Positions 14,575 through 63,937 are shown, counted from the stretch's first letter. The stretch: 64,000 bases of DNA from Candidatus Zhuqueibacterota bacterium (GCA_016931935.1 JAFGDW010000090.1:199-64198); one strand, 5' to 3'. A program made the numbers and translations. The notes: generated from the sequence alone by a model not told the origin.

Positions 14575-17500
14575 TCATTTTTTTAAAGATTTCTGATGCT
14601 GTTGCGAAACGAATGCTTTCGCTTGAGCAGTATTTGATTTTGCGCCTGTTAACGAATTTAGTGTCTTCTTAAACGCAACTGCGAGGCTGCGCATATGTTC
14701 AGCGTTTCCGGCCATTTCGTTAACTGCGGCTGCCGTTTGTTCGGCAGCGGATGCATTTTGTTGAATAATCATATTGACCTGATCGATCGCGATATTTAAA
14801 TGAGCAATTCCATCATTTTGTTCAGCCGAACCATTGGCAACGGTAGATAACATATCATTGATTCTATCCATATGCGATTGAATATCTTGCAAGCTATGGA
14901 TAACTTCCCGGTTCATTTCCACACTTTGATCAGCATCCTGTTTGGTTTCAGCTATGTGAACGGCTGTACTTTTGGCTGCTTCAGCGCTTCTCATTGCCAA
15001 ACTACGAACTTCATCGGCAACCACGCTAAATCCTTTGCCAGCTTCACCTGCTCGTGCGGCTTCGATGGCGGCATTCAACGCAAGCAGATTTGTTTGGAAG
15101 GCAATATCATCGATTGTCTTGATCACCTTTGTTGATTGATCTGCAGATGTCTGAATTTTCAATACAGCCGTTGATAATTTTTCGACACGTTCCAACGCCT
15201 GATGGGCGCGCTCGCGAGTCGACTCTGTCAGGTTCTGGACATCTTTGGAGCTTTTCATATTGGTTTGAGCAGTCGATGAAATGACTTGCAGACTACTGGA
15301 TATTTCTTCAATCGATGACGCCTGGTTGCTGGCGCCATTCGCAATTTGATCACTGGAAGTGGAAATCTGATGTGACCCATTCGCAACGGATTCTGCAAGC
15401 TCGGTCAAATTATGAACCCCCTTTGTCAATTGAACTACCGAAGCGTTCATTTTCGCATAAAGGTCACGAAATCTAGCTTCATTTTCCCGTGCATTTTTCT
15501 CCGCCTGTTCCACCTCAAGCAAATGCTGATTCATTTTTTCATTTGCATGTTCAAGTTCCGCGGCCTGTTTTCCAATCTCTTGAGTCCGCTCGTGAACCTG
15601 TCGTTCAAGTTCCCGTTTATTTGACTCGACACTTTTCATACGCTGTCTATAAATGAAGTAAACATTAGAAATAACGATTGTTATCATAAGAATTCTAAAC
15701 CATGCCGTTTTCCAGAATGGAGGGGCAATACTTATTTTAATTTCTGTACCGGCTTCATTCCAAATACCGTCGTTATTCGAAGCCTTGACACGAAACGTGT
15801 AATTCCCCGGATTTAGATTCGTGTAGGATGCAATTCGTTGTGTACCAACATAATTCCAGTTTTTTTCAAAACCGTCAAGCATGAATGCATATTGATTTTT
15901 TTCGGGAACTACATAATTAAGGGCGGCAAATTCAAAACTAAATACCGTGTGTTTGTACGAGAGTGTCAAATGAGATGTAAGGTTGATATCTTGCTGCAAA
16001 GGAGAATCTTCCGCACCAACTTCCACATCTTTATTGAATAATTGAAATTTTGTAAATACAATCGGTGGTTTAAATGAATTGATCTTAAGTTCTTCCGGCT
16101 TAAATTGGTTAAAACCGTTTGTACCGCCAAAATATAAAGTACCATCACTGCCTTTGCAAAATGAGCGCCGGTTAAACTCATTGCCCTGCAGGCCATCACC
16201 AATGTCATAATTCTTAAAAACGGGATTTTCGGGAAGGGATGTACCATTTTCAAACATTGAAAGGCCTTTGTTTGTACTTATCCAAAGATTTCCGCGATTG
16301 TCTTCCACCACGCCTTTGATCTGATTATTAGGCAGCCCCTGTTCTTCTGAATAGCAGGCAAATTTTTTCGTTTCTCGGTCGAACACGTTCAAGCCGTTTC
16401 CCGTACCGATCCAGAAATTACGTTTGCTGTCTTCATAGAAAACAATGGCCCCATTATAACTGATGCTATTTGCATCACTGGTATCTCTTACGAAATGCGT
16501 AAATTCATTCCTGTCTTTATCGAACATATCCACTGCTGAACTTGTAGAGATCCACAGCTCACCGTAGGACGTTTCATACAAAGCTCGCACCCAGTCATTG
16601 GAAATCGACTTTGGATTGTCCGGATCATTAAGATACTTTTTAAATGTTCCGGATTCATAATCGTACAGATTCAATCCCTGCCCCATGCATCCGACCCACA
16701 AATCACCATCCCGATCTTCAAGAATGGCAAACACATTATTACAACCGATGCTGCGATCGTCGTTATCATCATGCAGAAACCGTGTAAATGTTTTATCTTC
16801 CGGATTGTACAAATTAAGCCCCCCGGCCCAGGTGCCGATCCAGATATTACCGCGACTGTCTTTGTGAAGCGCCCAAATAGCATTAGAGCCAATACTTCGA
16901 GAATTTTTGGGATCATGCGTGAAATGGGTATACGATTTGTTTGATTTATTATAAAGGTTTATTCCGCCTTCAGTCCCAATCCAAAGATCATCCCCGTCTT
17001 CAAGAAAGACATTCACGAAATTATTATTCAGACTGTTCGGATTGCCAGCTTCCTGCTTGAAATGCAGAAATTTTTCGGATAGTCGATTGTAAAAGTTTAT
17101 ACCATCACCAAATGTGCCAACCCATATGCCACCATTCGTATCCTCCCATAACGACTGCACCGAATTATTGGAAAGACTTTGACTATCAAACGGATTAAAC
17201 CGATTATGATAAAAAGTGCAATTATCTTCGCGAAAAGTGTTCAGGTCCAGCATATCCAAACCGCCATTTTCCGCACCTATCCATAGCCAACCATGTCGAT
17301 CTTCCAACAGCGCCAAAATCGCCCCTTCGGTTATTGTTTGTTCGTCCCCATTTTTGTGCACGTATTGCCTGATGGTAACCTGTTCAGGATTTGCAGGTGG
17401 ATAACTTAACAAAATCAAGCCGGCACTATTTGTACCGACCCATAATCGTTTTTTACTGTCTTCAAACAGACTCCGTATTTGACCATCACCAAATCGAGGA

Positions 17501-18141
17501 TCTTTCGTATCGATATTAACAAACTTAAACTTATTATTTACATTCCGAATAAAACACAATCCATCCTGACTGCCAATCCAAATTGTGCCCTTGCTATCTT
17601 TTAAAATTGTATTAATATTATTCGTTAGAATACTGTGTTGATCATTGGCATCATGGGCAAAACGTTGAGAAGCATCGGTTGCCGGATCGAATAAATACAA
17701 TCCATGATAACGGCTCGTAATAAAAAGCTTTCCATCTTCCGTTTCTAAAAAGTGAGTAAGCTGACCTTCCGGCCAACTTTTTTTATGGATGAACTCATCC
17801 CGCTGTCGATCATAAAAATTCAAACCATTTTCAGTGCCAATCCACAAATTGCCATTTTTGTCTTCGTAGATGGATTCTATGGCATTATCGCTTAACGTTT
17901 TCGGATTTTTGGGATTGTGTTTATAGACTTTCAGTGTGTAGCCGTCGTACCTGTTCAATCCATCGAACGTCCCAAACCACATAAATCCGTATTTATCCTG
18001 ACATACTGACCGTATCCAGCTTTGGGACAATCCATCCTGAACCGTGATGTGCCTGAATTTTACCTGAAATGGTTGTGCATAACCGGTTTCAAAACACATA
18101 AAAACAAGTATCGCAGCTAAAATTTTTTTCATCGTCTCCAC
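14575..18141 (-). CDS. Methyl-accepting chemotaxis protein with periplasmic double beta-propeller (Reg_prop repeats) + Y_Y_Y sensor domain, single TM, coiled coil and C-terminal MCP signalling domain
   Basis: 1188 aa; N-terminal 800 aa are a close paralogue (about 60% identity by eye) of the sensor domain of the HK at 51622-56187; TM after [10 protein letters not shown]; C-terminus contains canonical MCP core [41 protein letters not shown]; no HisKA/HATPase/REC. Confidence 0.8.
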
Positions 18142-18165: not shown

Positions 18166-21100
18166 TTATAATACTTTTACGACGACATATTTTGACAGTT
18201 TTACCAGTACTTCTTCTATATTTATCGGCTTGGAAATGTAATCATCCATACCTGCATTCAAAAATTTTTCACGATCTCCCTTCATTGCATGAGCGGTCAT
18301 CGCAATAATCGGGATTTCTTTTTTATCGGAAAGCCGAATTCGTCTGGTTGCCTCAATCCCGTCCATTTTGGGCATCTGAACATCCATGAGAATAAGATCG
18401 AAATGTCGGTCAGCAGCGAATACTAAATCAAGCGCTTCCTGGCCGTCGTTTGCGACCTGCACCCGGTGTCCCCACTTCTTCAGAAGATTTATTGCCACTT
18501 TCTGGTTAATGATATTGTCTTCCGCCAAAAGAATATTCAACGAGCTGTTCACATCTGTATTGGCATGCCCATCACCTGAACCCGCATTAGCCTGATCAAT
18601 CTTACCCAGTGTCTCAAGGATTGCATGTAATAAATTCTGCTGACGGATTGGTTTTTGGATGAAATTTTGAATGGCGATTTCCTGCCGCTGTCCATGATTT
18701 TCATCATGCCCTAATGAACTCATCATAATTATTTTGATGTTGTTCCATTCTTCACGAGCACGTATAGCGCGTGCGACTTCCAGGCCATCCATTTCCGGCA
18801 TTTGATGATCGAGCAAGACCAATGAAAATTGTTTATCATTTGTTATCGCACGACTCAATAATTCCAATGCATGAGCGCCATTAATTGCAACGGTGGGTTT
18901 CAATTTCCACTGCGTGAAAAGATCGCTTACAAACGCGCAATTGGTTTCATTATCATCCACAATTAATATTCGCGTACCAACTAAATGTGAGGCTGGCAAT
19001 TCAACACTTTCGCACCCCTGAAAATTACCAGACGCAAAACAGGCGGTAAAGTAAAATGTACTTCCTTTTCCGATTTCACTCTCAACCCAAATATCGCCCC
19101 CCATCAAGCCAGCAATTTTTTGTGAAATCGTAAGCCCAAGTCCGGTGCCCCCATATTTACGCGTCGTGGAGCTATCAGCCTGAGAAAAGCTTTCAAAGAT
19201 TTTACTTATTTTATCTTGTGGGATACCAATTCCTGTATCAACAATAGCAAATCGAAGCTTCATTTTATCTACTGTTCGCGCTTTCGATTCGCTCACCAAT
19301 TCGACCCGAACAACAATTTCACCCTTTTCTGTAAATTTAATACTGTTTCCAATTAAATTAACAATCACTTGTCGCAATCTATCAGGATCGCCCTTCAAAG
19401 CAGTCGGTACATCCCGTTTAATCCCATAAAGAAGTTCCAGCCCTTTGGATTTTGCCTGAATCGCCAAGCTGGAAATGGCGGATTCAATTACATCGTGTAG
19501 CTTAAAATCGACTTCTTCCAGTTCCATTTTTCCGGCTTCAATCTTCGAAAAATCGAGAATATCATTTAACAATTTGAGTAACGATTCCGCTGATTGTTTG
19601 GCCATATGTAAATAGTCTCGTTGCGTTTTATTATCAGCCATTCCGATAGCCAACTCGGTCATACCGATAACGCCGTTCATCGGCGTTCTGATTTCATGGC
19701 TCATATTGGCTAAAAATTCACTTTTGTATTGATTTGCATCTTCAGCGAGTTTTTTTGCAGCCTGCAATTCACGCTCGAAACGTTTACGTTCGGTGATATC
19801 GCGATTGATACCAACCAATCCCTGCACATCGCCGTTCTGGTTACGCAATTGGATTTTCGAACTCAACACATATACTTTATTGCCGGTCAGGGGTTCAACA
19901 CCGTATTCTTCCTTATCAATGATTGTTTCACCCTGTTTGATGATTTTTATATCATCATTAATGAATTGCTCGGCAATTTCTTTCGGAAAAAAATCCATGT
20001 CCGTCCGCCCTAGCAAATCTTCCTGGCATAACTTCCCCATTTTTCTGATATGCGTTTTATTATTCAGAATAAATCGATTATCTACATCCTTGACAAAAAT
20101 GCTTTCGGGAACAATATCGATGACTGATTTCAATAAATAGCGCTCATTGGCAAGTTCTTTTGTCCGTTCTGATACTTTCTGTTCGAGCGATTTATTTTGC
20201 TGACGAATATTGTATGTTCGGATTTTATAAATAAACGCGATCAATCCGGCAATCACGACAATTACAATTACACGAAACCACCATGTCTGCCACATCGGCG
20301 GGGTAATAACAATGCCTAATGAGGTTTTCCGATCAAACCAGATGCCATCGCCATTGGTTGCTTTTGCCTGAAATTCATAATATCCGGCTGGTAAATTTGT
20401 ATAGGTGACAAATCTGCGCTTTCCGACATAATTCCACTTTTCTTCAAAATTAAGTAATCGGTACGCATATTCACATTTATTGGAGGAATTTAAATTTAAT
20501 GAGACATAGTTGAACGATATAATATTGTCTTTATACGACAGCTCAATCTTCTGCGTTTTTGAAACGACTTCCTTTAGAATCGTTCTGCCATCTTTCATGC
20601 TGCCAACAGGAATAGATGTATTAAATAATTTGACATCTTTAATAATTACCGTGGGGCTGCTATAATCATCAATTATTTCATCGGGATAAAAGGCAGTAAT
20701 GCCATATTCGCCACCAAATAATAATCGACCATCGGCTGTTTTAAAACAGGAACGTTTAAAAAATTGCTGATCCAATAATCCATCATTGACATCGTAATTT
20801 CGAAAAGTCTCGTCATCTGTTGAAAACCGCGTTAAGCCATTATCTGTACTCAGCCATAACTGATTATTGTCATCTTCCAGAATACCCATGATGATATTTG
20901 TGGATAATCCGTTCTTTTCAGTATAAACTGTAAAGTTATCCGATTCGGAATTATATCGATTCAATCCATCACGGGTACCAATCCACAATTTCCCGGATGA
21001 GTCGACAAAAATCGTATAAATAAAATCATTGCTCAGACTTGATTCATCATTGACTTTGTTGTGGTACACTGCAAATAATCCGGAATTTTTGTCGAACCGG

Positions 21101-22665
21101 GCCAATCCATAGGTTGTCGATATCCAAACACTATGCTCATAATCTTCCAAAATCTGTCCGCCCCATTTGCTGGGTATTTTTGTTGTATCGTTAGAATTTC
21201 CTTCATAGTGGGTAAACACATTATTTTTTATATCGAAATAATCCACACCGAAATTTTCAAGCGCAAGCCATAAATTATTATTGTGGTCCACATAAATATC
21301 CCGAACATCATTGCCGGCAATGCTGTTTCTGTTTTTCGGATCGTGCACATAACGAATAAATGAATCACCCGTTTTATTGAACAGATTAAGTCCGTTATCA
21401 TAAGTGGCAATCCAGATACGTCCGGACAAGTCTTCAACAATGGAGTAAATCGGACCAAATCCCAAACTGTGTGGATTTTTCGGATCATGTTCGTAGGTAT
21501 TTATTTTCACACCATCGCTATTAAACACATCAATTCCCCCGGCCATGTAACCTATCCATAGGTTGCTATTTTTGTCGACCAGAATTGTATTGACTTTCTT
21601 TTTGCTTAAACTATTTTTATCAGTCACGTTCCGAATGTATTGCTCAAACGCTTTTTGCTTTAAGTGATAACTAATTCCAAAGTTATCATGACCCGCCCAA
21701 ATATTTCCTTTACCATCCTTGAACACGCATGAAACATGCATGTTCTTAATACCGTTGCTGTTGTATTCGGAATAGGCATATGTCTGAAAAATATTTTTAC
21801 CGATATCATATAATTTGAGGCCTTCGCCGGTTGCCAACCAAATTTTATCCTTGCTATCTTTATAGAAGGAACGGATAAAGTTATATTCATTACTTTTTTG
21901 GATTCGGGTAAATTTTCCGGAGGTCCGATCGTAAATTGATAATCCGTAGCGGACAATGCCGATCAGAATATTTTTATTGCCATCGAAATAGAGCGCGGAA
22001 ATATTATTATCCGGCAGGCTGTTTTTTCTTTCGGGATTATGCTGAAAATGTGTAAACGAATTACTGTGAGTGTCGAAGAAATCAAGACCTGCTGGTGTGC
22101 CAATCCACAGATTATCATCATCATCAATTATCAGCGATTTGATATTGTTATTAATCAGGCTATTTATATTCTCTGAATTTTCAAACAAGGTGAACGTGTT
22201 TGCTCGGCTGTCATATTTATAAAATCCTACGCCATCGGTGGCAATCCAGAGATTATTCTTTTTGTCGTCAACAATGGAAACAATATTTGTATGAAGTTGA
22301 TTTTTCAAATAAGTTGTAAACGAATCCGTTTCACGCTCATATTTGCATAAACCATTGAATGTGCCAATCCACAGTACGCCGTTTTTATCTTCAAATAATG
22401 ATTGAACGTATGAATTGCACAGGCTGGACTGATTATTCGGTTCGGACAAATATACAGCAACGGAATAGCCATCGTATTTATTCAATCCTTTATCTGTTCC
22501 AATCCATAAAAATCCTTCATGATCTTCGAGAATACAATGAATATTATTATTGGAAAGCCCATGTTCCTTGGAAAGATGCTTGAATATGAGTGAACGTGTC
22601 TGTGCATGAAGTGACGGTCCAGCAGCAACCAGGATCATGCATAGTATCAGCATTTTATTTTTCAT
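18166..22665 (-). CDS. Hybrid sensor histidine kinase/response regulator: signal peptide, Reg_prop beta-propellers, Y_Y_Y, TM, PAS, HisKA, HATPase_c, REC, REC; no HTH output
   Basis: 1499 aa; YAYRLLNFEEKWNYV...TPPMWQTWWFR (Y_Y_Y/TM junction); H-box [17 protein letters not shown]; G-boxes DTGIGI, GGTGLGL; two receiver domains (LIVDDN...LLDHQMPEMDG; LLAEDN...LMDVQMPKMDG); 24 bp upstream of the MCP gene. Confidence 0.85.
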   Translation of the reverse strand: MKNKMLILCMILVAAGPSLHAQTRSLIFKHLSKEHGLSNNNIHCILEDHEGFLWIGTDKGLNKYDGYSVAVYLSEPNNQSSLCNSYVQSLFEDKNGVLWIGTFNGLCKYERETDSFTTYLKNQLHTNIVSIVDDKKNNLWIATDGVGFYKYDSRANTFTLFENSENINSLINNNIKSLIIDDDDNLWIGTPAGLDFFDTHSNSFTHFQHNPERKNSLPDNNISALYFDGNKNILIGIVRYGLSIYDRTSGKFTRIQKSNEYNFIRSFYKDSKDKIWLATGEGLKLYDIGKNIFQTYAYSEYNSNGIKNMHVSCVFKDGKGNIWAGHDNFGISYHLKQKAFEQYIRNVTDKNSLSKKKVNTILVDKNSNLWIGYMAGGIDVFNSDGVKINTYEHDPKNPHSLGFGPIYSIVEDLSGRIWIATYDNGLNLFNKTGDSFIRYVHDPKNRNSIAGNDVRDIYVDHNNNLWLALENFGVDYFDIKNNVFTHYEGNSNDTTKIPSKWGGQILEDYEHSVWISTTYGLARFDKNSGLFAVYHNKVNDESSLSNDFIYTIFVDSSGKLWIGTRDGLNRYNSESDNFTVYTEKNGLSTNIIMGILEDDNNQLWLSTDNGLTRFSTDDETFRNYDVNDGLLDQQFFKRSCFKTADGRLLFGGEYGITAFYPDEIIDDYSSPTVIIKDVKLFNTSIPVGSMKDGRTILKEVVSKTQKIELSYKDNIISFNYVSLNLNSSNKCEYAYRLLNFEEKWNYVGKRRFVTYTNLPAGYYEFQAKATNGDGIWFDRKTSLGIVITPPMWQTWWFRVIVIVVIAGLIAFIYKIRTYNIRQQNKSLEQKVSERTKELANERYLLKSVIDIVPESIFVKDVDNRFILNNKTHIRKMGKLCQEDLLGRTDMDFFPKEIAEQFINDDIKIIKQGETIIDKEEYGVEPLTGNKVYVLSSKIQLRNQNGDVQGLVGINRDITERKRFERELQAAKKLAEDANQYKSEFLANMSHEIRTPMNGVIGMTELAIGMADNKTQRDYLHMAKQSAESLLKLLNDILDFSKIEAGKMELEEVDFKLHDVIESAISSLAIQAKSKGLELLYGIKRDVPTALKGDPDRLRQVIVNLIGNSIKFTEKGEIVVRVELVSESKARTVDKMKLRFAIVDTGIGIPQDKISKIFESFSQADSSTTRKYGGTGLGLTISQKIAGLMGGDIWVESEIGKGSTFYFTACFASGNFQGCESVELPASHLVGTRILIVDDNETNCAFVSDLFTQWKLKPTVAINGAHALELLSRAITNDKQFSLVLLDHQMPEMDGLEVARAIRAREEWNNIKIIMMSSLGHDENHGQRQEIAIQNFIQKPIRQQNLLHAILETLGKIDQANAGSGDGHANTDVNSSLNILLAEDNIINQKVAINLLKKWGHRVQVANDGQEALDLVFAADRHFDLILMDVQMPKMDGIEATRRIRLSDKKEIPIIAMTAHAMKGDREKFLNAGMDDYISKPINIEEVLVKLSKYVVVKVL

Positions 22666-31440: not shown

Positions 31441-31576
31441 AATCGTTCTCCGCCAACCATCACATTTAATTTATATCTTTCAATAACGCATTCATTTCAC
31501 ATGCAAAAAAATTTAATTTCTGTCGCGTGACATTTCTTTGCACCAAGTGCGCTGTTATTTTTATTTTGGTGCTTTC

Positions 31577-50756: not shown

Positions 50757-51357
50757 CTCAATTTTTTATGAATCAGCCTATTTAACCATACAGGAATATA
50801 GACACTTGACTATACTCCTTATCATCACACCAGGCTGGCATCGTAGTTTGCAGCATACAACGTCCGTATTTTCATCGAGTGCAATTGTTTTATCGCACAT
50901 ACTCAAAACTGATCTTTGCGAAAGTCCGGTATGTATAGAATGATGCTCGCATGGATTATGTTGTGCTGACAATATTCCAGGCATGTGCGTAAACGAAAGC
51001 GTTTGCATCAGGTAGCGGGCACGTTCGTTCAGTAGATGTACAATAATTGAGTGGGAAAAATTGATATGTATCGGAAGAAGCTGCACTCTTACATGCTTAT
51101 GGCACACAAGAAAACAGCAAAATATGGTAAACAATGGTATAATAAATTTCAACATTCCACACAACATCATCGTCGTCTTCTCGCACATTTCATAGAAAGA
51201 AATTTGAACCGCTACAATAACTTACATGGATTCACTCGCATCACTATCAATTGCATGTTTGCATTCCTGCACATGATTCAACATCGTTTTTAGTTTAGCA
51301 ATATTATACTTTAAACTAGCATGACTTGAACATTTTTGCTTTCCTGGTCGATCAGTT

Positions 51358-51506
51358 GCCTGAGCTTGTCGAAGGCAACATGTACGCCATTGTATTTTCG
51401 AATTTTGTGGGGCTGTATCAAAAGTCTTGTCAAATTTCATCCTGAACGTAGTCGAAGGATGATAACTCACGATAAAACAACATGCTTCGACTTCGCTCTG
51501 CATGAA
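51358..51506. repeat. Two repeat fragments in the 865-bp spacer: TTGCCTGAGCTTGTCGAAGGCAACATGTACGCC (51355-51388, core 51358-51381) and TGCTTCGACTTCGCTCTGCATGAAG (51483-51506), related to R1/R2 and to 27441/31577
   Basis: Sequence identity to other copies read directly. Confidence 0.4.
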
Positions 51507-54600: not shown

Positions 54601-56187
54601 TGACGTTGTCGATATCCATAGCTCATTATAGCTGTTTTTATAAATCGTCCGAATCCAGTCATTAAAAATGCTTGTGTTATCCGTATCATCGTGTAAAAAT
54701 TGCTTATAGGTTTTTGTCACTTCATTGTAACGGATTAATCCCTGCCCCATGCATGCAAGCCACAGGTTTTTGCCATCTTTCAGGATACTGAAAACATTTT
54801 TGCACGGAAGAGTTTTATTCTGTTCAGAATTGAACCGGATGATTGTGTTATCCTTCCGATCTAGCAAATTCAATCCACCTTCCCACGTTCCAACCCACAA
54901 TTTCTGTTGGTCATCTTTACACAGCGACCAGACTGCGTTCGAGCTCAGCGTGTTCGGATTGTGAGGATCATTAATGAAATGTGCAAATGTCTTATCCCGC
55001 TTGTTGAACAGGTTCAGTCCCCCTTCTGTCCCGATCCATATGGAATCACCATCTTCCAGAAATGCATTGACAAAGTTGTTGCTTAGGCTGGCAGGATTAC
55101 CGGGTTCATGAGAGAAGGAAACAAACTTTTCTGTTAGTTGATTATAGAAATTGATTCCGTTAGCGAAGGTCCCAGCCCACATGCTGCCGTAAGAATCCTG
55201 GTACAATGAATAAACGCTATTGTTTGATAAGCTAAATGGATTTAGCGGATCGTTTCGATAATGATAGAAACAGACATCATTCGAGTTTGAACTTCCGGGT
55301 TCCAGGATGTCCAAACCATTATTTTCAACCCCAATCCATAATCTGCCACCGCTGTCTTCCGATATAGAACGGATTGCTCCGTTGGCAATTGACGATTCAT
55401 CACCATCCCGATGCGCATAGTGAACACATTCGAGTATTTTCGCTGTTTCCGGTTCATATTTTATCAAGCAAAGACCATTGCTATTTGTGCCTACCCATAA
55501 CTTTCCATTCTTATCAGTATGAAGTGAAATTATATGGTTGTCCGTAATTCCAGCGGCATTCATGATATTATTCAATCTTACAAATTTTTGAGTCGACACA
55601 TCAAAGCGATTCAGCCCGTTCGCAGTTCCTACCCAAACATTGTTATTTTTATCAATTACTATATCTTCGACATTATAATTGCTAATTGTGCTTTCATCCG
55701 TGGCATTTGGCACAAATGAAACTGTTTTGTCGTTCTCCGGATTAAATAACAACAGACCATGTGCAGCGGTACCAATTAAAAACCGGCCATCATCCAATTC
55801 AACAATATTCTGCACTCCTTCCTGAGGCCAGCTTGTTTTGTGCGAAAAATTATCATTCTGACGATCGTAGCGGTTCAAACCTGCAAAAGTCGCGATCCAC
55901 AATTGTCCCTTTTTGTCTTCATAAATTGCTTCGATCGTGTTACTTGAAATACTTTTTTTATTACGCGGATTATATTTATAAATTGTAATTGAATAGCCAT
56001 CGTAGCGGTTAAGGCCGTCATTTGTTCCGAACCACATAAAGCCATACGAATCTTCACAAATGGATTTCACCCAGCTCTGTGATAATCCATCCTGAACAGT
56101 AATATGTTTAAATTTTAGAGACAATTGCTCTCCGGACGCTGCATGAGCGACGGGCAGTAACAACAATAGAAATAGTATTTTCTTCAC
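51622..56187 (-). CDS. Hybrid sensor histidine kinase/response regulator (Reg_prop/Y_Y_Y sensor, TM, PAS, HisKA, HATPase_c, REC, REC); sensor domain is the closest paralogue of the MCP at 14575-18141
   Basis: 1521 aa; [16 protein letters not shown].. N-terminus and YHYRNDPLNPFSLSNNSVYSLYQD... region closely match the MCP gene; TPPYWHRWWFR; [17 protein letters not shown]. Confidence 0.85.
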   Translation of the reverse strand: MKKILFLLLLLPVAHAASGEQLSLKFKHITVQDGLSQSWVKSICEDSYGFMWFGTNDGLNRYDGYSITIYKYNPRNKKSISSNTIEAIYEDKKGQLWIATFAGLNRYDRQNDNFSHKTSWPQEGVQNIVELDDGRFLIGTAAHGLLLFNPENDKTVSFVPNATDESTISNYNVEDIVIDKNNNVWVGTANGLNRFDVSTQKFVRLNNIMNAAGITDNHIISLHTDKNGKLWVGTNSNGLCLIKYEPETAKILECVHYAHRDGDESSIANGAIRSISEDSGGRLWIGVENNGLDILEPGSSNSNDVCFYHYRNDPLNPFSLSNNSVYSLYQDSYGSMWAGTFANGINFYNQLTEKFVSFSHEPGNPASLSNNFVNAFLEDGDSIWIGTEGGLNLFNKRDKTFAHFINDPHNPNTLSSNAVWSLCKDDQQKLWVGTWEGGLNLLDRKDNTIIRFNSEQNKTLPCKNVFSILKDGKNLWLACMGQGLIRYNEVTKTYKQFLHDDTDNTSIFNDWIRTIYKNSYNELWISTTSSIDLFDPANESFTHFRHDTSNINSISHSTAIIFFEDSRKNLWIGTDNGLNVYRREKKDFRGYFEEQGLPNNQIKGILEDDHANLWISTNRGIAKFVNGTNVPKNPQFIVYGVDDGLLGNEFNRRSCMKAADGEMYFGGPNGFNVFNPESLRINLAKPPVVITKFQLFNKDVEIKGGNSPLMENIVTTSSLTLSHQHSVISFEFVALNYIAPERNQYAYKMEGFDTEWNYVGNQHDATYTNLDPGTYTFRVKASNNDGIWNETGASLTIIITPPYWHRWWFRTMVLNLLMLLIFALYQIRTRNIRIQNKQLEQKVAERTKDLLTANNALEDKKNLLQTVIDLVPDPIFVKDRHSRFILNNRAHMESVGITRQEDMIGKSDADFFPGGHVDDYHKDEINIIKTGIPIINKEEKGVNPLTGEIDWILTSKVQFKNNKGEVDGIVGVSRLINDRKKFEEELQIAKEIAESANRSKSEFLANMSHEIRTPMNGVIGMTELALATDLNRQQQDYLRIVKQSAESLLDLLNDILDFSKIEAGKLELEIINFDIRKVMETAITTLAIQANSKGIELLYDLKHDVPVGLMGDPGRLRQIIVNLIGNAIKFTEKGEILVKVSLLEKDATQHDGLIGLQFSVSDTGIGIPEDKLDKIFESFSQADNSTTRKFGGTGLGLTISQKLTHLMGGKIWVESELGKGSVFQFTAYFKPGKIKESEKFARRVKELEGMRVLIVDDNNTNCIIMRDVMEANGFQPTIAWNGMEALNKLYEATVEEKQFSLILLDFQMPEMDGYEFTKRVRANTKWDSIKIIMMSSVVDRSDLKRNKIDGIDEFLQKPIRQTDLMYSILTLLGKACTDLDCIGRSFSIDDKMPSLHILLAEDNIVNQKVATSLLKKWGHEVTVANDGQEAISILGKRSFDLVLMDVQMPNIDGIEATRQIRQTLKLEIPIIAMTAHAMKGDREAFLNAGMNDYIAKPIDVEEVRSKIAAFAIVGNGTESKT

Positions 56188-56218: not shown

Positions 56219-59200
56219 TTATGCAGATACAAATTCTGATTTGTGAACGACAAATTTATTTAACACGCGAATAATTTCATCGACATTAATGGGTTTTGCC
56301 ACATATTCATCCACACCTGCTTCAAAGAAACGTTCACGGTCGCCTTTCATCGCGTGAGCTGTCACAGCAACAATTGGAATTGTCGGTGGTACGGCCAGTG
56401 AGTTTGAAGCTCGGATCGCTTTAGTCGCTTTAATGCCATCCATTACGGGCATTTGGATATCCATCAGGATCAAATCGAAATGTTTATCTTTCAAAATTTC
56501 CAATGCTTCCTCGCCGTGTTGAGCGATGGTTACATAATGTCCCCACTTCGATAATAATTTCTGAGCAACCCTTTGGTTAATAAGATTGTCTTCAACCAAT
56601 AGAATGTCTATCGGATGAATTTCTTCGTTTGAAGTTGCTGATTGGTCTTTTCCACGACGATCATTCTGTAAATTTTCGATGTTTTTTCTGATTGCCATCC
56701 ATAATTCCGAATGTCGTATTGGTTTCGCAAGACAATTTTCGCGACCAATTCGCTTACATGTTTCATGCTTATAATCTTCAACGAGTGAACTAAGTAAAAT
56801 AATTTTTATATTTTTCCACTCCGCGTTTTCCGACATCCGCTCGATAACTTCCATCCCCGTCATTCCAGGCATTTGGCAGTCCATTAAGACGAGCTGAAAT
56901 TGTTTAGCAGGATTGTGGATTTCATCGAGCATAGCTATTGCCTTATTTCCACAGTTTGTAACACTAACTTTCGCGCCGTGTCGTTTTAGCAGTTTTTCGA
57001 GAATCAATCGATTGGTTTCATTATCATCAACCACCAAAATTCGAATGCCTTCCAAATTAACAGTTTCAGCATCGTGCATTTCTTCAGATGCATTCCCTGG
57101 TTTCACTTTTATTGTAAAATGAAAAGTGCTTCCTTTACCTACCTGACTTTCTACCCACATCCGTCCGCCCAGCAAGCGTGTTAATCGACGGGATAATGTC
57201 AGTCCAAGACCCAACCCACCATACTTCCGGGTTAACGATGCATCCAACTGAGAAAAGCTTTTAAATATTTTATTTATTTTATTCTTGGGAATTCCAATAC
57301 CACTATCAGTTACTGTAAAATGTAAGGCGATTAAATCATTTGCTACCTGTCGCGACGATTTCTCGATTTCAACACCCAGCTTAATTTCTCCCTGTTCTGT
57401 GAATTTAACAGCATTACTCAAAAGGTTAACAAGTATTTGATGCAATCGACTGGAATCACCAAACAAGTGGCGTGGTACATTTTCATCAATATCATAAATA
57501 AGCTCGATATGTTTGTTCGCAGCTGCCGACGCAAAGCTTACAAGCGCCCGTTCGATTAATTTGCACAAATTAAAATCTGTCTGGGAAATTTCAATTTCAC
57601 CGGATTCAATTCGTGAAAAATCAAATACACCTTTTAACAAATCAAGCAGTGACTCTGCCGAATGCACAACGACTCGAAGATATTCATGGATTTGCTCCAA
57701 ATTGTGCTCACTACCTGCCAATTCTGCCATCCCGATTACCCCGTTTAAAGGTGTGCGGAACTCATGACTCAAATTTGCCAGAAATTCGCTTTTGACACGT
57801 GCCGCACTCTTAGCAGCCTGCTTGAGTTTTTGCTCCATTTGCTTTCGCTCGGTTATATCACGACGGATACCGACCAACCCAAGAATTTTTCCATCTTTAT
57901 CGCGAAGTGGTACTTTCGATGTCAATACGCACACTTGTTCACCCGTTTCTAAGGCACGTCCGTATTCTTCTTTATTTATGATAGCTTCACCATTGTGCAA
58001 CACACGGTCATCGTCAGAGTCAACCGTATTAAAATCTATTTGATTATCAGTGAAAAAATCTTTGTCGTGTTTACTTATAAGTTCAACCTGATCGCTACAA
58101 CCCAGATCTTTGATGTGCTTTAGATTATTCAAAATGAACCTTTTTTGTACATCCTTCACGTAAATGCTATCCGGTACAATATCAATGACTGTTTGCAACA
58201 GATTTCGTTTATTTTCAAGCTCAAGCGTACGTTCTCTGACTTTTAGTTCAAGGTAGCGATTGCGTTTTCGAATGCTCTGCGTTCGCAGGTAATAAATGGA
58301 CACAACAAAGAACGATATGGCAAAAAACATTATTGTCCGAAACCATGCTGTCTTCCAAAATGGTGGTGTAATTATAATCTGAATTGATCGACCCGCGTTA
58401 TTCCACACGCCATCATTATTCGTACCGCGCACATGAAAAGTATATTTTCCGGGATTGATATTGGTATAGGTTGCAATTCGTTTATTCCCTACATAATTCC
58501 AATCTCTGTCAAATCCTTCCAACCGATACGCATATTGATTTTTTAGCGGTGTCGTAAAATCAAGAGCAGCAAATTCGAATGAGAATACAGAATTTCGGTA
58601 CGATATAGTTATTTCATCTGACAACAAAATATTTTCTGACAGCGGTGATTTTTCAATTCCAATCGGAACTTGTTTATTCATAAGTTGAAAATCTGTAATA
58701 ACAATATTTGGTATGAATGTATTTTCTTGTACATCATCGGGATAAAAGTCATTAAATCCATTCGTACCACCAAAATACATTCTTCCATTTCGTGCAGTTA
58801 GACTGGATTTTTTAATAAACGTATTGCCCTGTAATCCATCCAATTTTGTAAAACTCTTAAATTGATTGGTTTTTAAATTGAACCTGGAAAGGCCACAATT
58901 TGTGCTAATCCATAAATACCCGTTCATATCTTTTTCAATACTATAAATAAGATTATTGGGCAAGCCATCTATATCAAAATAACGTTTAAAGGATTTGTCA
59001 TTTTGATCAAACTTATTCAAACCATTGGTTGTCCCTACCCATACGGTACTGCTGTCTTGTTCGAATATGGTTGTTATAAAATTGTTTGATATGCTGTTAA
59101 TATCATTTTTGTTATGTTGATAAAGTACGCTTTCTTTTGTATCCGGATCAAAAACAATAAAGCCAAATGTAGTTCCAATAAGCAGATTTCCATTCGAAGC

Positions 59201-60796
59201 CAGTTCCACTAATTCTATGTGATTGCTAAACATTTTGTACTTTTTTAAATCGATATTGTGAAAAGACATATCATCTATATAGAAGGTATTTAATCCTCCT
59301 GTTGTTGCCAGCCATAATCGCCCCTTTTTGTCTTGAACAATATCGTAAACATGATTGTTATTTAAACCACTATTTTCTGATGTAAACGTAACAAATTTTT
59401 TTTGATCCTGATCAAATCTACTAAAGCCGCCGTCGTATGTGCCAATCCACACATTATTATCAGAATCAACGTAAACGGTTAGCACAGCATCCACATTTAG
59501 ATTCGTAGTCTCAGTATTATATCTTTCAAATGTATTTAAAAAGGGATCAAATAAATTTAAACCACCGCCATCCGTAGCAATCCAAATTTTTCCATCATTA
59601 CTCTCACTGAATTCCCACACTGAATTATCACTTAAACTGGATTGCACACCCGGAACATTTTTGTGATGCTCAAATGCATGCTTTTTGTTCTTTATAATAT
59701 CTAATCCCGCATCATACGTGCCAAACCACATATCGCCTGCTTTATCCTGAAAAATTGAATAAATCGCATTACTATTTATGCTAGCAGGATTTTTGAAATC
59801 ACTTTTAAAATGCGTAAACGTCTTTCGGTCAGGATGCAGATAATTCAGTCCCCCATTTTCATTGCTAATCCACAACCCATCACTTGCATCGACTTTAATT
59901 ACTCGTATCGATTTGCCCGTAAGGCCATATTTACCGTGTCGATCAATTCGATAATTCTTAAACTTGCCGTGTTTCAAAACATCTTTGTGAATGCAGGACA
60001 GTCCTCCTTCAATGCAACCGAACCAGAGATAGCCTTGTTTATCTTCATCAATTGAATAGACATTATTACTTACCAAACTTGTAGAATCATTTTCGTTGTG
60101 CATGAGATGAATAAATTTTCCGGTAGCTCTATCCAGAATATTTATACCTCCCCTGACACTCCCAATTATAAAATTTCCGTTACTATCTTCAAAAATGCTT
60201 CTGATATCAGAAGAAAACAGACCTGATGGATTATCCTTATCATAACCGTAGTGAATGTATTCATGCGTCTGTGGATTAAACCAGTAAAGTCCATTGTGGT
60301 GGGATGAGAGCCACAAATTCCCTTTCCGATCGGGATATATACACTGAATATTAAATGTGATGAATCCCTCAATGTCATTATAATTAATAAATCGATCAAA
60401 TTTCCGATCATATAACGACAAGCCAATTTCAGTGCCAATCCACAGGTTTCCATTATCATCTTTCGCCAAACATTCAATGAGATTGGATTGAATGCTATTA
60501 GAATCATTTAAGGAATGTCTGTATACCTTGAATTGGTAGCCATCGTATCGGTTTAGTCCATCAAAAGTACCAAACCACATAAAGCCCAGATCGTCCTGTA
60601 ATATGCACCTTACATTGGCATGAGAAAGCCCGTCATCAGTCGTCAAGTGATCAAATTTCAGATAGTGATCAATCGTTTCTGATTTCAAGATTGACGGATA
60701 TATCCATAATGCAAGCAGCATTATCATCGTTAATTTAATTACATGACTCCAATATTTTTGATTAAAAATCTTCATAAAGCAGAACCCCATCCCCAA
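56219..60796 (-). CDS. Hybrid sensor histidine kinase/response regulator (Reg_prop/Y_Y_Y sensor, TM, PAS, HisKA, HATPase_c, REC, REC)
   Basis: 1525 aa; [11 protein letters not shown]; H-box SEFLANLSHEFRTPLNG; two REC. Confidence 0.85.
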   Translation of the reverse strand: MGMGFCFMKIFNQKYWSHVIKLTMIMLLALWIYPSILKSETIDHYLKFDHLTTDDGLSHANVRCILQDDLGFMWFGTFDGLNRYDGYQFKVYRHSLNDSNSIQSNLIECLAKDDNGNLWIGTEIGLSLYDRKFDRFINYNDIEGFITFNIQCIYPDRKGNLWLSSHHNGLYWFNPQTHEYIHYGYDKDNPSGLFSSDIRSIFEDSNGNFIIGSVRGGINILDRATGKFIHLMHNENDSTSLVSNNVYSIDEDKQGYLWFGCIEGGLSCIHKDVLKHGKFKNYRIDRHGKYGLTGKSIRVIKVDASDGLWISNENGGLNYLHPDRKTFTHFKSDFKNPASINSNAIYSIFQDKAGDMWFGTYDAGLDIIKNKKHAFEHHKNVPGVQSSLSDNSVWEFSESNDGKIWIATDGGGLNLFDPFLNTFERYNTETTNLNVDAVLTVYVDSDNNVWIGTYDGGFSRFDQDQKKFVTFTSENSGLNNNHVYDIVQDKKGRLWLATTGGLNTFYIDDMSFHNIDLKKYKMFSNHIELVELASNGNLLIGTTFGFIVFDPDTKESVLYQHNKNDINSISNNFITTIFEQDSSTVWVGTTNGLNKFDQNDKSFKRYFDIDGLPNNLIYSIEKDMNGYLWISTNCGLSRFNLKTNQFKSFTKLDGLQGNTFIKKSSLTARNGRMYFGGTNGFNDFYPDDVQENTFIPNIVITDFQLMNKQVPIGIEKSPLSENILLSDEITISYRNSVFSFEFAALDFTTPLKNQYAYRLEGFDRDWNYVGNKRIATYTNINPGKYTFHVRGTNNDGVWNNAGRSIQIIITPPFWKTAWFRTIMFFAISFFVVSIYYLRTQSIRKRNRYLELKVRERTLELENKRNLLQTVIDIVPDSIYVKDVQKRFILNNLKHIKDLGCSDQVELISKHDKDFFTDNQIDFNTVDSDDDRVLHNGEAIINKEEYGRALETGEQVCVLTSKVPLRDKDGKILGLVGIRRDITERKQMEQKLKQAAKSAARVKSEFLANLSHEFRTPLNGVIGMAELAGSEHNLEQIHEYLRVVVHSAESLLDLLKGVFDFSRIESGEIEISQTDFNLCKLIERALVSFASAAANKHIELIYDIDENVPRHLFGDSSRLHQILVNLLSNAVKFTEQGEIKLGVEIEKSSRQVANDLIALHFTVTDSGIGIPKNKINKIFKSFSQLDASLTRKYGGLGLGLTLSRRLTRLLGGRMWVESQVGKGSTFHFTIKVKPGNASEEMHDAETVNLEGIRILVVDDNETNRLILEKLLKRHGAKVSVTNCGNKAIAMLDEIHNPAKQFQLVLMDCQMPGMTGMEVIERMSENAEWKNIKIILLSSLVEDYKHETCKRIGRENCLAKPIRHSELWMAIRKNIENLQNDRRGKDQSATSNEEIHPIDILLVEDNLINQRVAQKLLSKWGHYVTIAQHGEEALEILKDKHFDLILMDIQMPVMDGIKATKAIRASNSLAVPPTIPIVAVTAHAMKGDRERFFEAGVDEYVAKPINVDEIIRVLNKFVVHKSEFVSA

Positions 60797-60925
60797 TATT
60801 CACAAGCGACGGTTTATATATTTATGTACATCGGAATGGCTATCCGGGGGATAGATATTCCTGTAATCACTTCCTGCAGTAAATATAAATTTAGTTTTAG
60901 ATGTCACTAATTACTGGTCACAAAA

Positions 60926-63900
60926 TTATCCATTTTTGGATTCAACAGTGATATGTGCAAATTTTATCAGGACTCTTTTCACTTCATCCACATTAATCGG
61001 CTTGGAGATATAATCATCCATGCCTGTATCCAAAAATTTTTCCCGGTCGCCCTTCATGGCATGGGCAGTCATCGCAACAATCGGAATCATCGAATTTAAT
61101 GATTTACGAATAAAGCGAGTTGCTTCAAGACCATCCATGTTTGGCATTTGTACATCCATAAGAATTATATCAAATTCTTTTTCTTTGAGCTGTTCGATTG
61201 CTTCTTTGCCATCATTGACAATAGTAACGGTGTGTCCCCATTTTTTCAGCAAGCTGGTAGCAACCTTTTGATTCACCAGGTTATCTTCAGCAAGCAAAAT
61301 TTTTAACGGAACACTCGTTTCATCGAATGGGCTGTTGGCACCATTGACATCCACTGATGTGTTCTTGTTTCCAAACAAGGTAAGTATCGTGCTAAAAAGA
61401 TCATTCTGACGCACAGGTTTTTGTAAAAACTCATCAATTCCAATATCTTTGCTCTTTACGACATCCCCTTTTTCCACGATCGAGCTCATCATAATGATTT
61501 TACATTTATCCCATATCGAATTGGAACGAATTTTTACAGCGAAATCAAAACCATTCATTTCCGGCATTTGAAAATCCAATAAAATTAATGCGAATGGTTT
61601 TTCATCCACTGTTGACTTATACATTGCGTTTAACGCATCTTTACCGTTCCAGGCAGTTTGTGTTTCAAATCTACACGATGAAAGCACATCTCTTAAGATG
61701 ATGCAATTCGTAGCATTGTCATCCACAATAAGGACCCGAGTATCGGAAAATTCTTTCATTCGGTTACGATACACCTGAGAATTTTCCACCTTGCCACGCA
61801 TTAACTGAGCTGTGAAATGGAACAGGCTCCCTTTTCCGATTTCACTTTCGCACCAGATATTTCCTCCCATAAGCTCCAATAGTTTTTTTGAGATAGTAAG
61901 CCCGAGCCCAGATCCCCCATACTTTCGTGTGGTTGAATTATCAGCCTGGGAAAAACTGTGGAAAATTTTATCAAGCTTGTCTGCCGGAATGCCAATACCG
62001 GTATCACGAACTAAAAAATGAAGTTTGATGTGGTTCTGATCCGTTGGTTGTTCACCATTACGATCGGCATCATTTTCAAGTTGTACGGTCAGCACAACTT
62101 CCCCCTTGTCGGTGAATTTGATCGCATTACCAATCAAATTAACAATAATTTGCCGCAAACGTCCAGGATCTCCCTTCAGCTCTACAGGCACGTCAGGCCG
62201 AATATCACATAGCAATTCCAACTTTTTTGTGTGAGCCTGCACAGCAAGTGTACTAATAGCAGTATCCACAACTTTACGCAAATCAAAATCGATGGATTCC
62301 AACTCCATTTTGCCAGCTTCAATTTTGGAAAAATCAAGAATGTCGTTTAACAAATACAGCAGAGATTCGGCCGATTGTTTGGCAATTTTCAGGTAATCGC
62401 GTTGCTGTTTGTTTTGCGAAACGTCCAGCGCCAATTCTGTCATCCCGATAATGCCGTTCATTGGTGTGCGCAGTTCATGACTCATATTAGCCAGAAATTC
62501 GCTTTTCGTTTTATTGGCAATTTCAGCAGCCAATTTTGCGGCTTGCAATTCCTGCTCTTTTCGTTTTAAATCAGAAATATCCCGGGAGATAGTAACAATT
62601 CCATGGATATTGCTTTCGTCATCTTTAATCGGTACTTTTGATGTCGACATCCATCTAGACTTTCCATCCGGGAATTCAATTTCTTGTACGTCGTTAATAA
62701 GGTGCAGCCCGGTTTGAATGATATCACGGTCCTCGTTCATTATGTCACGAGCAAATTTTTCAGAAAAGAAATCGAAATCAGTCTTGTTAATAACCGAGTC
62801 AGGTGACTTAAGCTTTAGCATAGTGGCATAAGCGCCATTCATTCTTAAATACCGCCCCTGGTTATCCTTAAAAAATATGGAATCCGGAATATTATCCATG
62901 AGCAACTGTAATAAATTCCGTTCATCGTTTAGCGCGGTTTCGGCTTTCTTCTGTTCAGTGATATCATTTGCCGAACAGACCACATAGTCAACATCGCCAG
63001 TTTCATTCACGTGGGGCATTCGGGTTATTGCCAAAAGCCGGGATTCACCTTCACAATTCGTGATCCACTCTTCGGTGTATTTCTTCTGTTTCGATTCAAA
63101 CGCCTGTCTGTTATTCTGGAGAATGACATTGGTCTCTTTCATCGGGAAGAAATGCAAAATTTTTTTATGTTCTATATCACTTTTTTGTTTTCCCAGAAAC
63201 TGTGCATGAGAGTTGTTCACAGAACCATATGTCCTATAATTCACAAGATACCAAATTTGTGTTTCGATATTATCGGATAATAATTTAAGTTCATTTTTTT
63301 GGTGCTCAAAATTCAGAATCATATCCCGGGAATCTTTCCGGATCATGGCTACTGCATCAAACAGATCGGAAAACGGATCATGTTCCGGGAGACCATCAAT
63401 GAGACTTTCATCTGATGTATCCCATGATAATCGCCCCAATAGACCGAATAATTCATGAATCCGCTTGCTTTGATGATTGATAATTGTTTCTTTTTCCTGT
63501 AACAGTTGCCTGGCAAAACTGTTTAGTTCCTTTTTCTTTTTGGGAATTATATTTTTTTGTGCTATCTCTTGAGTCTGCTTATTTTCTTTATGCTTTAAAA
63601 CACGCATAATTGCCGAATTAAAATCTGAGTCGACAAATATTTTGTTCATGAATTTATGTGAAAATAATTTGCCAAACTTCACGATGCCCTTCAATGCCGG
63701 ACTTAAGCCGAAGAAAATGGTTAACGCAATTGAATCAATATTATTTACAAACCAGGCAATAATTAGCTTCCTGATCGCTAATGATGCCCCGATTGAATTA
63801 CTTAAATCATATAACAAATAATACTTTTCGCCTTCAGGAATGGTATGTTCAACAACCGTTTGTAATGTTTTCATTGAATCGAACACATGTTCGTCAAGAT

Positions 63901-63937
63901 ATCCAGTCACATGCATCAAGATGATGTTTTCATCCAT
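60926..63937 (-). CDS. Hybrid histidine kinase without propeller sensor: N-terminal ~120-aa domain of unknown function, two PAS-like regions, HisKA, HATPase_c, REC, REC
   Basis: 1003 aa; [17 protein letters not shown]; DTGIGI/GGSGLGL; two receivers (LIVDDN...LLDFQMPEMNG; LLAEDN...[11 protein letters not shown]). Confidence 0.8.
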   Translation of the reverse strand: MDENIILMHVTGYLDEHVFDSMKTLQTVVEHTIPEGEKYYLLYDLSNSIGASLAIRKLIIAWFVNNIDSIALTIFFGLSPALKGIVKFGKLFSHKFMNKIFVDSDFNSAIMRVLKHKENKQTQEIAQKNIIPKKKKELNSFARQLLQEKETIINHQSKRIHELFGLLGRLSWDTSDESLIDGLPEHDPFSDLFDAVAMIRKDSRDMILNFEHQKNELKLLSDNIETQIWYLVNYRTYGSVNNSHAQFLGKQKSDIEHKKILHFFPMKETNVILQNNRQAFESKQKKYTEEWITNCEGESRLLAITRMPHVNETGDVDYVVCSANDITEQKKAETALNDERNLLQLLMDNIPDSIFFKDNQGRYLRMNGAYATMLKLKSPDSVINKTDFDFFSEKFARDIMNEDRDIIQTGLHLINDVQEIEFPDGKSRWMSTSKVPIKDDESNIHGIVTISRDISDLKRKEQELQAAKLAAEIANKTKSEFLANMSHELRTPMNGIIGMTELALDVSQNKQQRDYLKIAKQSAESLLYLLNDILDFSKIEAGKMELESIDFDLRKVVDTAISTLAVQAHTKKLELLCDIRPDVPVELKGDPGRLRQIIVNLIGNAIKFTDKGEVVLTVQLENDADRNGEQPTDQNHIKLHFLVRDTGIGIPADKLDKIFHSFSQADNSTTRKYGGSGLGLTISKKLLELMGGNIWCESEIGKGSLFHFTAQLMRGKVENSQVYRNRMKEFSDTRVLIVDDNATNCIILRDVLSSCRFETQTAWNGKDALNAMYKSTVDEKPFALILLDFQMPEMNGFDFAVKIRSNSIWDKCKIIMMSSIVEKGDVVKSKDIGIDEFLQKPVRQNDLFSTILTLFGNKNTSVDVNGANSPFDETSVPLKILLAEDNLVNQKVATSLLKKWGHTVTIVNDGKEAIEQLKEKEFDIILMDVQMPNMDGLEATRFIRKSLNSMIPIVAMTAHAMKGDREKFLDTGMDDYISKPINVDEVKRVLIKFAHITVESKNG

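Follow-up and report, generated by a model that had tools for sequence, protein, structure and literature searches.

How did a bacterium come to carry a dozen sensing genes in one row, and where do their products send their signals? The question is raised by a 64,000-nucleotide stretch of DNA from Candidatus Zhuqueibacterota bacterium (GCA_016931935.1, JAFGDW010000090.1:199-64198; hereafter the window), in which positions 14575-63937 hold twelve consecutive sensing genes on one strand. An original prediction, made from the sequence alone, read them as a ligand-diversified battery of hybrid kinases created by repeated tandem duplication, with tandem receivers (REC) in place of a DNA-binding domain and with an output route that was left open. 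With slightly more confidence than doubt, we regard the locus as an old, reshuffled sensor cluster that feeds an ordinary phosphorelay, by way of the last receiver of its kinases (REC2), to an unlinked Hpt protein. Large as it is, the array represents an ordinary case of a hybrid sensor kinase class that is common, and we do not see in it a system of a new kind.

The predicted run of same-strand signalling genes from 14.5 kb to the window end was borne out by gene mapping: the minus strand holds all open reading frames (ORFs) of at least 150 aa between 14575 and 63937, and Pfam placed all twelve products among signalling proteins. They comprise eight double-propeller/Y_Y_Y hybrid kinases, one propeller/Y_Y_Y methyl-accepting chemotaxis protein (MCP), one cytoplasmic PAS kinase, and a binding protein with a dCache-HAMP kinase (Table 1; proteins are named below by the lower coordinate of their genes). 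Pfam confirmed the eight propeller kinases on their common plan, except that 27691 has one receiver instead of two. The PAS-only kinase, HAMP kinase, MCP and binding protein said to accompany them were all present, but the HAMP kinase is broken by an in-frame TAA. Intergenic gaps across the array range from 24 to 865 bp, most genes lying 130-865 bp apart, and 18166 stops 24 bp upstream of the MCP gene. The window makes up nearly all of its contig (64,000 of 64,937 bp). Only 63 bp separate the start of the final gene from the window end, and hence the array may run on beyond the contig.

Could these proteins regulate transcription themselves? As had been predicted, Pfam detected no helix-turn-helix (HTH) family at E<=0.01 in the full-length array proteins, and none at E<=1 in three representative C-terminal pieces of 300 residues. 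Since the second receiver stops at most about 14 residues short of each C-terminus, there is no room for such a domain. The earlier reading treated this HTH-less, two-receiver layout as a departure from the Bacteroides plan, but it proved to be the usual design among the 120 best relatives of 51622, Bacteroidota included. Ninety-nine of them have the order core-REC1-REC2 and 10 the order PAS-core-REC1-REC2; none contains PF12833, and all but two of the 40 that we inspected (both Hpt-fused) end 0-18 residues past the last receiver. Their sources are Desulfobacterota, Aminicenantes and many Bacteroidota (Larkinella, Dyadobacter, Telluribacter, Mucilaginibacter); 'hybrid sensor histidine kinase/response regulator' is their routine annotation. 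Where HTH_18 exists, the precomputed Pfam lists flag it: among the 120 best relatives of the MCP sensor, about 26 are classic hybrid two-component systems (HTCS) with PF12833. One such protein, P0149 (MBN2011276.1), has a sensor 50% identical to that of 14575 and ends in a typical AraC HTH; we assign it to the same metagenome-assembled genome (MAG) because its accession falls between two JW960 proteins. A second AraC-HTH HTCS, P0198 (MBN2007764.1), with a sensor 45% identical to 14575, is probably from the same MAG. Both designs thus coexist in the organism, and there is nothing unusual in the one that lacks an HTH. Within this genome, one sensor clade is wired to at least three outputs, namely a phosphorelay kinase, an MCP and an AraC-type HTCS; the histidine kinase (HK)-only form was found in other organisms only.

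How was the array built? We divided the proteins into five modules (sensor, PAS, core of the kinase, REC1, REC2) and compared these separately. Pairwise identity was 31-53% for the sensor (invariant ungapped columns, 10.5%), 29-59% for PAS (11%) and 26-66% for REC1 (11%), against 43-76% for the kinase core (28%) and 43-71% for REC2 (30%); over the whole protein, the copies are 37-51% identical. Among the sensor sister pairs are the two that had been foreseen, 46194/56219 (50-51%) and 14575/51622 (53-54%), together with 27691/31664 and 22861/36630. Only one pair, 27691/31664, consists of neighbours. The sensor tree and the transmitter tree were discordant, with 56219 and 27691 as transmitter outliers (the 56219 core is 43-55% identical to all others); the separate comparison that had been proposed as a check for domain shuffling thus supports swapping. 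In the transmitter tree, the branches of the PAS-only and dCache-HAMP kinases lie within those of the propeller kinases (cores 61-73% identical), and the same transmitter cassette is carried on three unrelated sensor types: propeller, PAS-only and dCache-HAMP. For several sensors, nearer kin were found outside the genome than in the array: that of 46194 is 57% identical to Desulfobacterota proteins P0003, P0006 and P0011 and 51% to 56219, and that of 14575 is 58% identical to HK-only proteins and 54% to 51622. The transmitter cassettes are slightly closer to one another than to any external sequence recovered. Discordant trees, outside kin of the sensors and mutual closeness of the cassettes together argue that the array is old and owes its make-up both to duplication and to the swapping of domains. 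A single adjacent sister pair, cross-phylum sensor kin and one cassette on three sensor types do not fit an account as simple as repeated tandem duplication. Recent gene conversion was ruled out by the lack of long high-identity DNA tracts: related segments of array DNA are typically 60-77% identical, with a maximum of about 84% over only 77 nt.

Where, then, does the phosphate go? The His box SHE(I/F/L)RTP and the G1 box D(T/S)G(I/V)GI are present in all ten kinases. Strict patterns matched the N box in nine of the ten and the G2 box in seven; by eye, the N and G2 boxes of 27691 are variant forms, and the G2 boxes of 56219 and 60926 fall outside the strict pattern. Aligned with CheY (positions D12/D13, D57, T/S87 and K109), REC2 has the pocket E-D-D-T-K in all ten kinases and REC1 the pocket D-D-D-S-K in eight of nine, the exception being the broken dCache kinase with Arg at position 87. 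Judged by these residues, both receiver classes look phosphorylatable. The REC2 helix alpha-1, EDN(I/L)(I/V)NQ(K/R)V..LLKKWGH, is nearly identical in all ten; that of REC1 varies. The only single-receiver paralogue, 27691, keeps a receiver of the REC2 type, and the same single-receiver design recurs in the relatives P0005 and P0011. Eight of the cores are 61-76% identical, with near-identical DHp helices.

The relatives point to the next step. Of the 120 best propeller relatives, 8 carry an Hpt domain (PF01627) fused behind their last receiver, as do 23 of the 120 best relatives of the cassette. These tails carry the motif HxxKG, and P0050 and P0059 have the complete order core-REC1-REC2-Hpt. 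Because relatives fuse Hpt at this position, an ordinary His-Asp-His-Asp relay is indicated, and the output route is less open than originally stated.

According to the reading that we favour, eight of the nine propeller proteins would couple ligand binding at the periplasmic sensor to the control of a histidine kinase. The kinase would phosphorylate its own C-terminal receiver, REC2, from which the phosphate would pass to a separate Hpt protein and on to a response regulator, both encoded at other loci of the genome. With a variability equal to that of the sensors and a complete phospho-acceptor pocket, REC1 is most likely a modulator specific to each paralogue, for example a competing acceptor or a gate. 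Because REC2 and the core are the conserved modules, several or all kinases probably share one downstream Hpt. The pair of binding protein and dCache kinase, and likewise the PAS kinase, would feed the same relay through their shared transmitter cassette. The ninth propeller sensor, mounted on an MCP domain, would route the same type of input to chemotaxis.

What would the sensors detect? All nine propeller proteins have a hydrophobic, signal-peptide-like N-terminus and, directly after Y_Y_Y, a conserved transmembrane (TM) segment PP(F/Y)WxTWWFR. Residues 3-806 of 51622 align with the entire periplasmic domain of BT4663 (PDB 4A2L; E 7e-138), and by analogy with BT4663 oligosaccharides would be the likeliest ligands. 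At least four diverged lineages can be told apart among the nine sensors, which therefore probably bind different ligands; the idea of a ligand-diversified battery is a reasonable reading of them. The nearest external kin of the 46194 sensor are encoded directly downstream of a GH8 gene in Desulfatiglans-like contigs (L001, 8069-14326; L002, 8489-14515; L083, 6399-12506). There the kinase lies upstream of an SBP_bac_11/TOBE ABC transporter, and P0003 and P0006 are encoded in this block. A fourth contig (L084, 1-5074) belongs to the same block, although the contig end cuts its upstream gene. The four contigs represent one syntenic block, and their GH8s are 82% identical to one another and 24% to the GH8 of the window. 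This linkage is a weak hint, consistent with glycan sensing. The window GH8 was rejected as a target, given its low identity to the sensor-linked GH8s and their origin in a single block.

Several points weigh against this account. The 64-kb window contains no Hpt or response-regulator gene, so that the relay partner is unseen there: a hidden Markov model (HMM) built from the fused Hpt tails of relatives found no Hpt in the six-frame translation, and Pfam found none in the flanks. The conservation of REC2 and core could reflect a general constraint on the fold instead of a shared partner, and the divergent transmitters of 27691 and 56219 may be wired differently. No carbohydrate-active enzyme (CAZyme) or transporter operon adjoins the array; the link to glycans is hinted at by homology and by the one GH8-linked block in Desulfatiglans-like genomes. 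As predicted, there is no SusC/SusD in the window. The GH8 gene (8189-10474), whose product has a type IX secretion system (T9SS) tail, is the nearest CAZyme; it was placed 6 kb upstream but ends 4.1 kb from the array, on the opposite strand.

A more ambitious version of the relay model joins all parts into one glycan-sensing organ, in which about ten sensors converge via REC2 on a single Hpt, REC1 weights the inputs, and the 14575 lineage has been rewired to chemotaxis. We entertain it only tentatively and would not expect it to hold as a whole. If it were true, the cell would swim towards, and respond transcriptionally to, the same family of ligands.

The opposite arrangement, in which each kinase acts on its own unlinked Hpt or regulator and the clustering is only history, seems unlikely to us. 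Paralogous two-component pathways are usually insulated from one another, and some features of the array would suit such insulation: two transmitters, those of 27691 and 56219, share no more than 43-55% identity with the others, the REC1 sequences of the paralogues have diverged strongly, and most genes are far enough apart that they may be transcribed separately. However, helix alpha-1 of REC2, the usual surface of partner recognition, is almost invariant in all ten kinases, and the similarity of the eight cores with their near-identical DHp helices likewise argues for a common partner.

The same near-identical helices would permit heterodimers, which opens the possibility that the kinases regulate one another in the manner of RetS or HtsH, forming heteromers or serving as phosphate sinks or phosphatases for each other or for a master kinase, with the tandem receivers as sinks. 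The HK-REC-REC layout is shared with RetS, whose DHp-CA part (6DK8) is matched at E 4e-44, and the consecutive HtsH kinases of Lysobacter interact with each other and with RpfG (PMC8463545). Nevertheless, the catalytic motifs and both phospho-acceptor pockets are intact, nothing suggests a role other than that of a kinase, and the fused-Hpt relatives favour a forward relay. We consider cross-regulation of this kind quite improbable.

Could the array be redundant and in decay, left over from a past amplification and heading towards pseudogenes? The dCache kinase is the member that raises this question. It is split into two ORFs in the same frame, a dCache_1-HAMP part (43380-44534, 384 aa) and a HisKA-HATPase-REC-REC part (41775-43316, 513 aa), and GenBank protein P0235 on the contig matches the downstream 513-aa ORF. 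Joined, the two ORFs align without a gap across the stop to the intact 917-aa KSB1 protein P0234 (54% over 902 aa), in which Glu stands opposite the TAA. Translation restarting at the next ATG (43316), a single codon ahead of the phospho-His, would yield a product that lacks part of DHp helix 1. The TAA is either a nonsense mutation or a base error; provided that the base call is right, the kinase would be currently inactivated. Decay could also explain the Arg at the conserved Ser/Thr position of its REC1, and the repeat elements and very weak REC1-like trace (about 41166-41240) in the long gaps. Yet eleven ORFs of 340-1525 codons remain intact at the paralogue identities given above, which requires long-term purifying selection, and catalytic motifs are retained. 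A decaying array is therefore very improbable. That the array is an artefact of collapsed or falsely joined repeats, which the original prediction had named as a ground for refutation, we regard as practically negligible: the contig comes from a short-read MAG and has many related segments, but their DNA is too divergent and includes no long near-identical tracts, the proteins differ throughout, composition and strand skew are uniform across the array, and the same proteins are in GenBank from one 64,937-bp contig.

The binding protein and the dCache kinase also occur side by side in another KSB1 genome (GCA_020431365.1, L082), where the pair stands alone. This suggests that the product of 44942 is probably the ligand-binding partner of the downstream kinase. 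The PAS kinase has only a weak hydrophobic stretch of 19 residues (58-76), and for this reason we read it as cytoplasmic. Its N-terminal ~200 residues (63248-63937, residues 1-230) had no Pfam match at E<=1. By eye, the N-terminus shows a beta-alpha-beta arrangement followed by a long coiled coil and appears STAS-like; a single-sequence AlphaFold model had a mean predicted local distance difference test (pLDDT) value of 51.6. Two GenBank entries bear on the propeller kinases. The product of 51622 (MBN2009018.1) is annotated as 'response regulator [candidate division KSB1 bacterium]'. For 31664, the GenBank start lies 36 codons later and drops the signal-peptide-like N-terminus common to all other paralogues, so the longer start looks likelier.

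The chemoreceptor deserves separate attention. Its MCP signalling domain (PF00015, E 2e-34) has a canonical hairpin tip, and no HAMP was found at E<=1 in the cytoplasmic part. The ligand-binding domain is Reg_prop/Y_Y_Y with one TM segment, not 4HB, Cache, PAS or another known type. The window contains no CheA, CheW or CheY; flagellar and chemotaxis genes are reported from KSB1 clades II and IV (PMC9012183), and the presence of an MCP fits with this. We searched 1.84 billion cluster representatives by HMMER with the Y_Y_Y-TM-MCP part, which gave 23,005 MCP-like matches at E<=1e-30. Proteins of the propeller type among the results were the query itself, P0126, the full-length P0361, P0364 and P0436, the fragment P0378, and the weak matches P0354 and P0357. 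P0126 (MBN2011833.1, JW960_21070) is a second propeller-type MCP from the same MAG, 53% identical over the Y_Y_Y-TM-MCP part and 44% overall, and the search for relatives of the sensor added one more, P0143. In the literature searched by full text, we did not find a propeller-type chemoreceptor described; only the Lysobacter papers matched. Going by these searches, the propeller-MCP fusion appears to be the rarest element of the locus.

The long gaps hold a structured repeat of about 140-160 nt, higher in GC than its surroundings and bounded by terminal inverted repeats (GTATCC.TTCAATA ... TATTGAAAGGATAC). Identity between the long copies (Table 1) is 77%, and core fragments occur at 51353-51380 and 31576-31599. 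Copy 1 folds as RNA with -69 kcal/mol (z = -5.6). Lying in long gaps upstream of kinase genes, the repeat looks like one of the miniature inverted-repeat transposable element (MITE) or repetitive extragenic palindromic (REP) type. No Rfam family reached its gathering score anywhere in the window, blastx revealed no significant gene remnants in the long gaps, and the small ORFs in the gaps had no Pfam matches. The REC1-like trace, on the minus strand, is a very weak similarity to the REC1 C-terminus (E 0.4-4) that seven paralogues show at the same spot of the 654-bp gap; it could be a relic of a lost kinase or due to chance. Terminators were as frequent as in shuffled sequence, and most promoter-like sites were intragenic; the sigma-70 consensus may not suit the phylum.

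Beyond the array, the plus strand encodes a repressor of the BlaI type (Penicillinase_R, E 2e-29) and, after it, an M56 sensor-protease that resembles BlaR1 and is fused to an M23 peptidase domain (266-2148). Further on (3410-10474, plus) are three secreted proteins with T9SS tails: one with SBBP beta-propeller repeats, one with FG-GAP and a metallo-beta-lactamase fold, and one with GH8 and PD40. A 187-aa protein without a family lies between these genes. With three products bearing T9SS sorting tails, this upstream region suits an organism of the Fibrobacteres-Chlorobi-Bacteroidetes (FCB) group. Amid the plus-strand genes, 2.5 kb from the array, a minus-strand gene (11525-12109) encodes a YfiR/HmsC-like DUF4154 protein; such periplasmic proteins are often linked to signalling enzymes.

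Table 1. Genes of the array and other features located between 14575 and 63937.
Feature	Coordinates	Strand	Basis and remarks
Propeller/Y_Y_Y MCP	14575-18141	-	Pfam Reg_prop, Y_Y_Y, MCPsignal; 1188-aa ORF; GenBank MBN2009008.1, JW960_06665
Propeller/Y_Y_Y-TM-PAS-HK-REC1-REC2	18166-22665	-	1499 aa; Pfam
Propeller/Y_Y_Y-TM-PAS-HK-REC1-REC2	22861-27339	-	1492 aa; Pfam
Propeller/Y_Y_Y-TM-HK-REC, without PAS, single REC2-type receiver	27691-31440	-	1249 aa; Pfam
Propeller/Y_Y_Y-TM-HK-REC1-REC2, without PAS	31664-35953	-	1429-aa ORF; Pfam; GenBank P0009 = 1393 aa
Structured intergenic repeat, copy 1	36133-36293	.	676-bp gap upstream of 31664-35953; blastn
Propeller/Y_Y_Y-TM-PAS-HK-REC1-REC2	36630-41120	-	1496 aa; Pfam
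Structured intergenic repeat, copy 2	41397-41535	.	654-bp gap upstream of 36630-41120; blastn E 1e-34 to copy 1
dCache_1-HAMP-HisKA-HATPase-REC1-REC2, in-frame stop	41775-44534	-	about 919 codons; two ORFs, one frame
In-frame TAA in dCache-HAMP kinase	43380-43382	-	alignment with intact homologue
Periplasmic binding protein, ABC_sub_bind	44942-45964	-	340 aa; Pfam E 4e-33
Propeller/Y_Y_Y-TM-PAS-HK-REC1-REC2	46194-50756	-	1520 aa; Pfam
Propeller/Y_Y_Y-TM-PAS-HK-REC1-REC2	51622-56187	-	1521 aa; Pfam; GenBank MBN2009018.1, 100% identical
Propeller/Y_Y_Y-TM-PAS-HK-REC1-REC2	56219-60796	-	1525 aa; Pfam
PAS-PAS-HisKA-HATPase-REC1-REC2 kinase	60926-63937	-	1003 aa; Pfam

The locus leaves current concepts unchanged and mainly offers candidates for experiments in a phylum without cultured members. 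In compact form, it illustrates the natural rewiring of modules in bacterial signalling, with one transmitter cassette on three sensor types and one sensor fold on several outputs. If the kinases share one Hpt, they would form a good system for the study of many-to-one signal integration, and would help define the extra receiver of HK-REC-REC kinases, which are very common and hardly studied. With its propeller sensor, the MCP adds a type to the ligand-binding domains listed for chemoreceptors, possibly one for oligosaccharides.

Among known systems, the closest in architecture of the sensor half is the Bacteroides thetaiotaomicron HTCS BT4663 (4A2L/4A2M), which likewise combines a periplasmic double propeller and Y_Y_Y, one TM segment, HisKA, HATPase and a receiver in one polypeptide. 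The array proteins differ from it in having a second receiver and usually a PAS domain, in lacking the AraC-type HTH, and in having no adjacent SusC/SusD or polysaccharide utilisation locus. RetS of Pseudomonas aeruginosa resembles them in its two tandem receivers, the absence of an Hpt, its carbohydrate-type periplasmic sensor and the matching DHp-CA part. Its sensor, however, is 7TMR-DISMED2 and not a propeller, and RetS acts on GacS rather than through a relay of its own.

For the transmitter half, the order DHp-CA-REC1-REC2 is that of Caulobacter ShkA and of plant cytokinin-receptor-type kinases (Receiver_CRE1), systems in which the last receiver relays to a separate Hpt. The transmitter of 51622 aligns end to end with ShkA (6QRJ, E 1.5e-70) and with a plant kinase-receiver structure (7P8E, E 6.7e-86). 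In ShkA, phosphate passes from Rec2 to the Hpt protein ShpA, and Rec1 is a pseudo-receiver that binds cyclic di-GMP through contacts R324, Y338, R344, S347 and Q351, with a DDR motif in the linker (PMC6969517). By contrast, REC1 of the array kinases keeps its acid pocket, the DDR motif is absent, and ShkA is soluble. R324 and R344 are matched in 51622, but F replaces Y338, D replaces S347, S replaces Q351, and SFS stands in place of DDR. With a REC1 that is not degenerate, two of five contacts matched and no DDR, gating by cyclic di-GMP as in ShkA was ruled out.

How usual is such a row of sensors? A genome scan with the 1521-aa protein gave 79 loci in many phyla, which we viewed with 10 kb on either side of the match. 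With module HMMs built for the purpose, 16 of 81 loci had at least two propeller sensor genes within <=26 kb. The largest sets were six genes in Ignavibacteriota (L009), five each in an uncultured bacterium (L028) and in Bacteroidota (L029), and four each in an uncultured bacterium (L003), in Bacteroidetes (L004) and in Ferruginibacter (L026). Two members of L003 belong to the 14575/51622 sensor clade (50-56% identity), and other KSB1 loci (L040, L047, L061, L064) are single copy each. As far as these comparisons of sequence go, both the protein design and the tandem arrangement appear already common in public genomes. The arrays of the FCB group (L009, L029, L026, L003) are alike in having two to six adjacent propeller/Y_Y_Y genes on the same strand, but their outputs are mostly of the HK-only or PAS type, and within the 10-kb flanks viewed none reaches nine members. 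In Lysobacter enzymogenes, three consecutive Reg_prop/Y_Y_Y hybrid kinases, HtsH1-3, form one operon, are 50-53% identical, and are reported to bind a promoter in addition to their interactions (PMC8463545). Consecutive propeller hybrid kinases are thus found in both, three in the Lysobacter operon and eight or nine here. Nine in a row is a large number, yet it is the same phenomenon as these known tandem sets.

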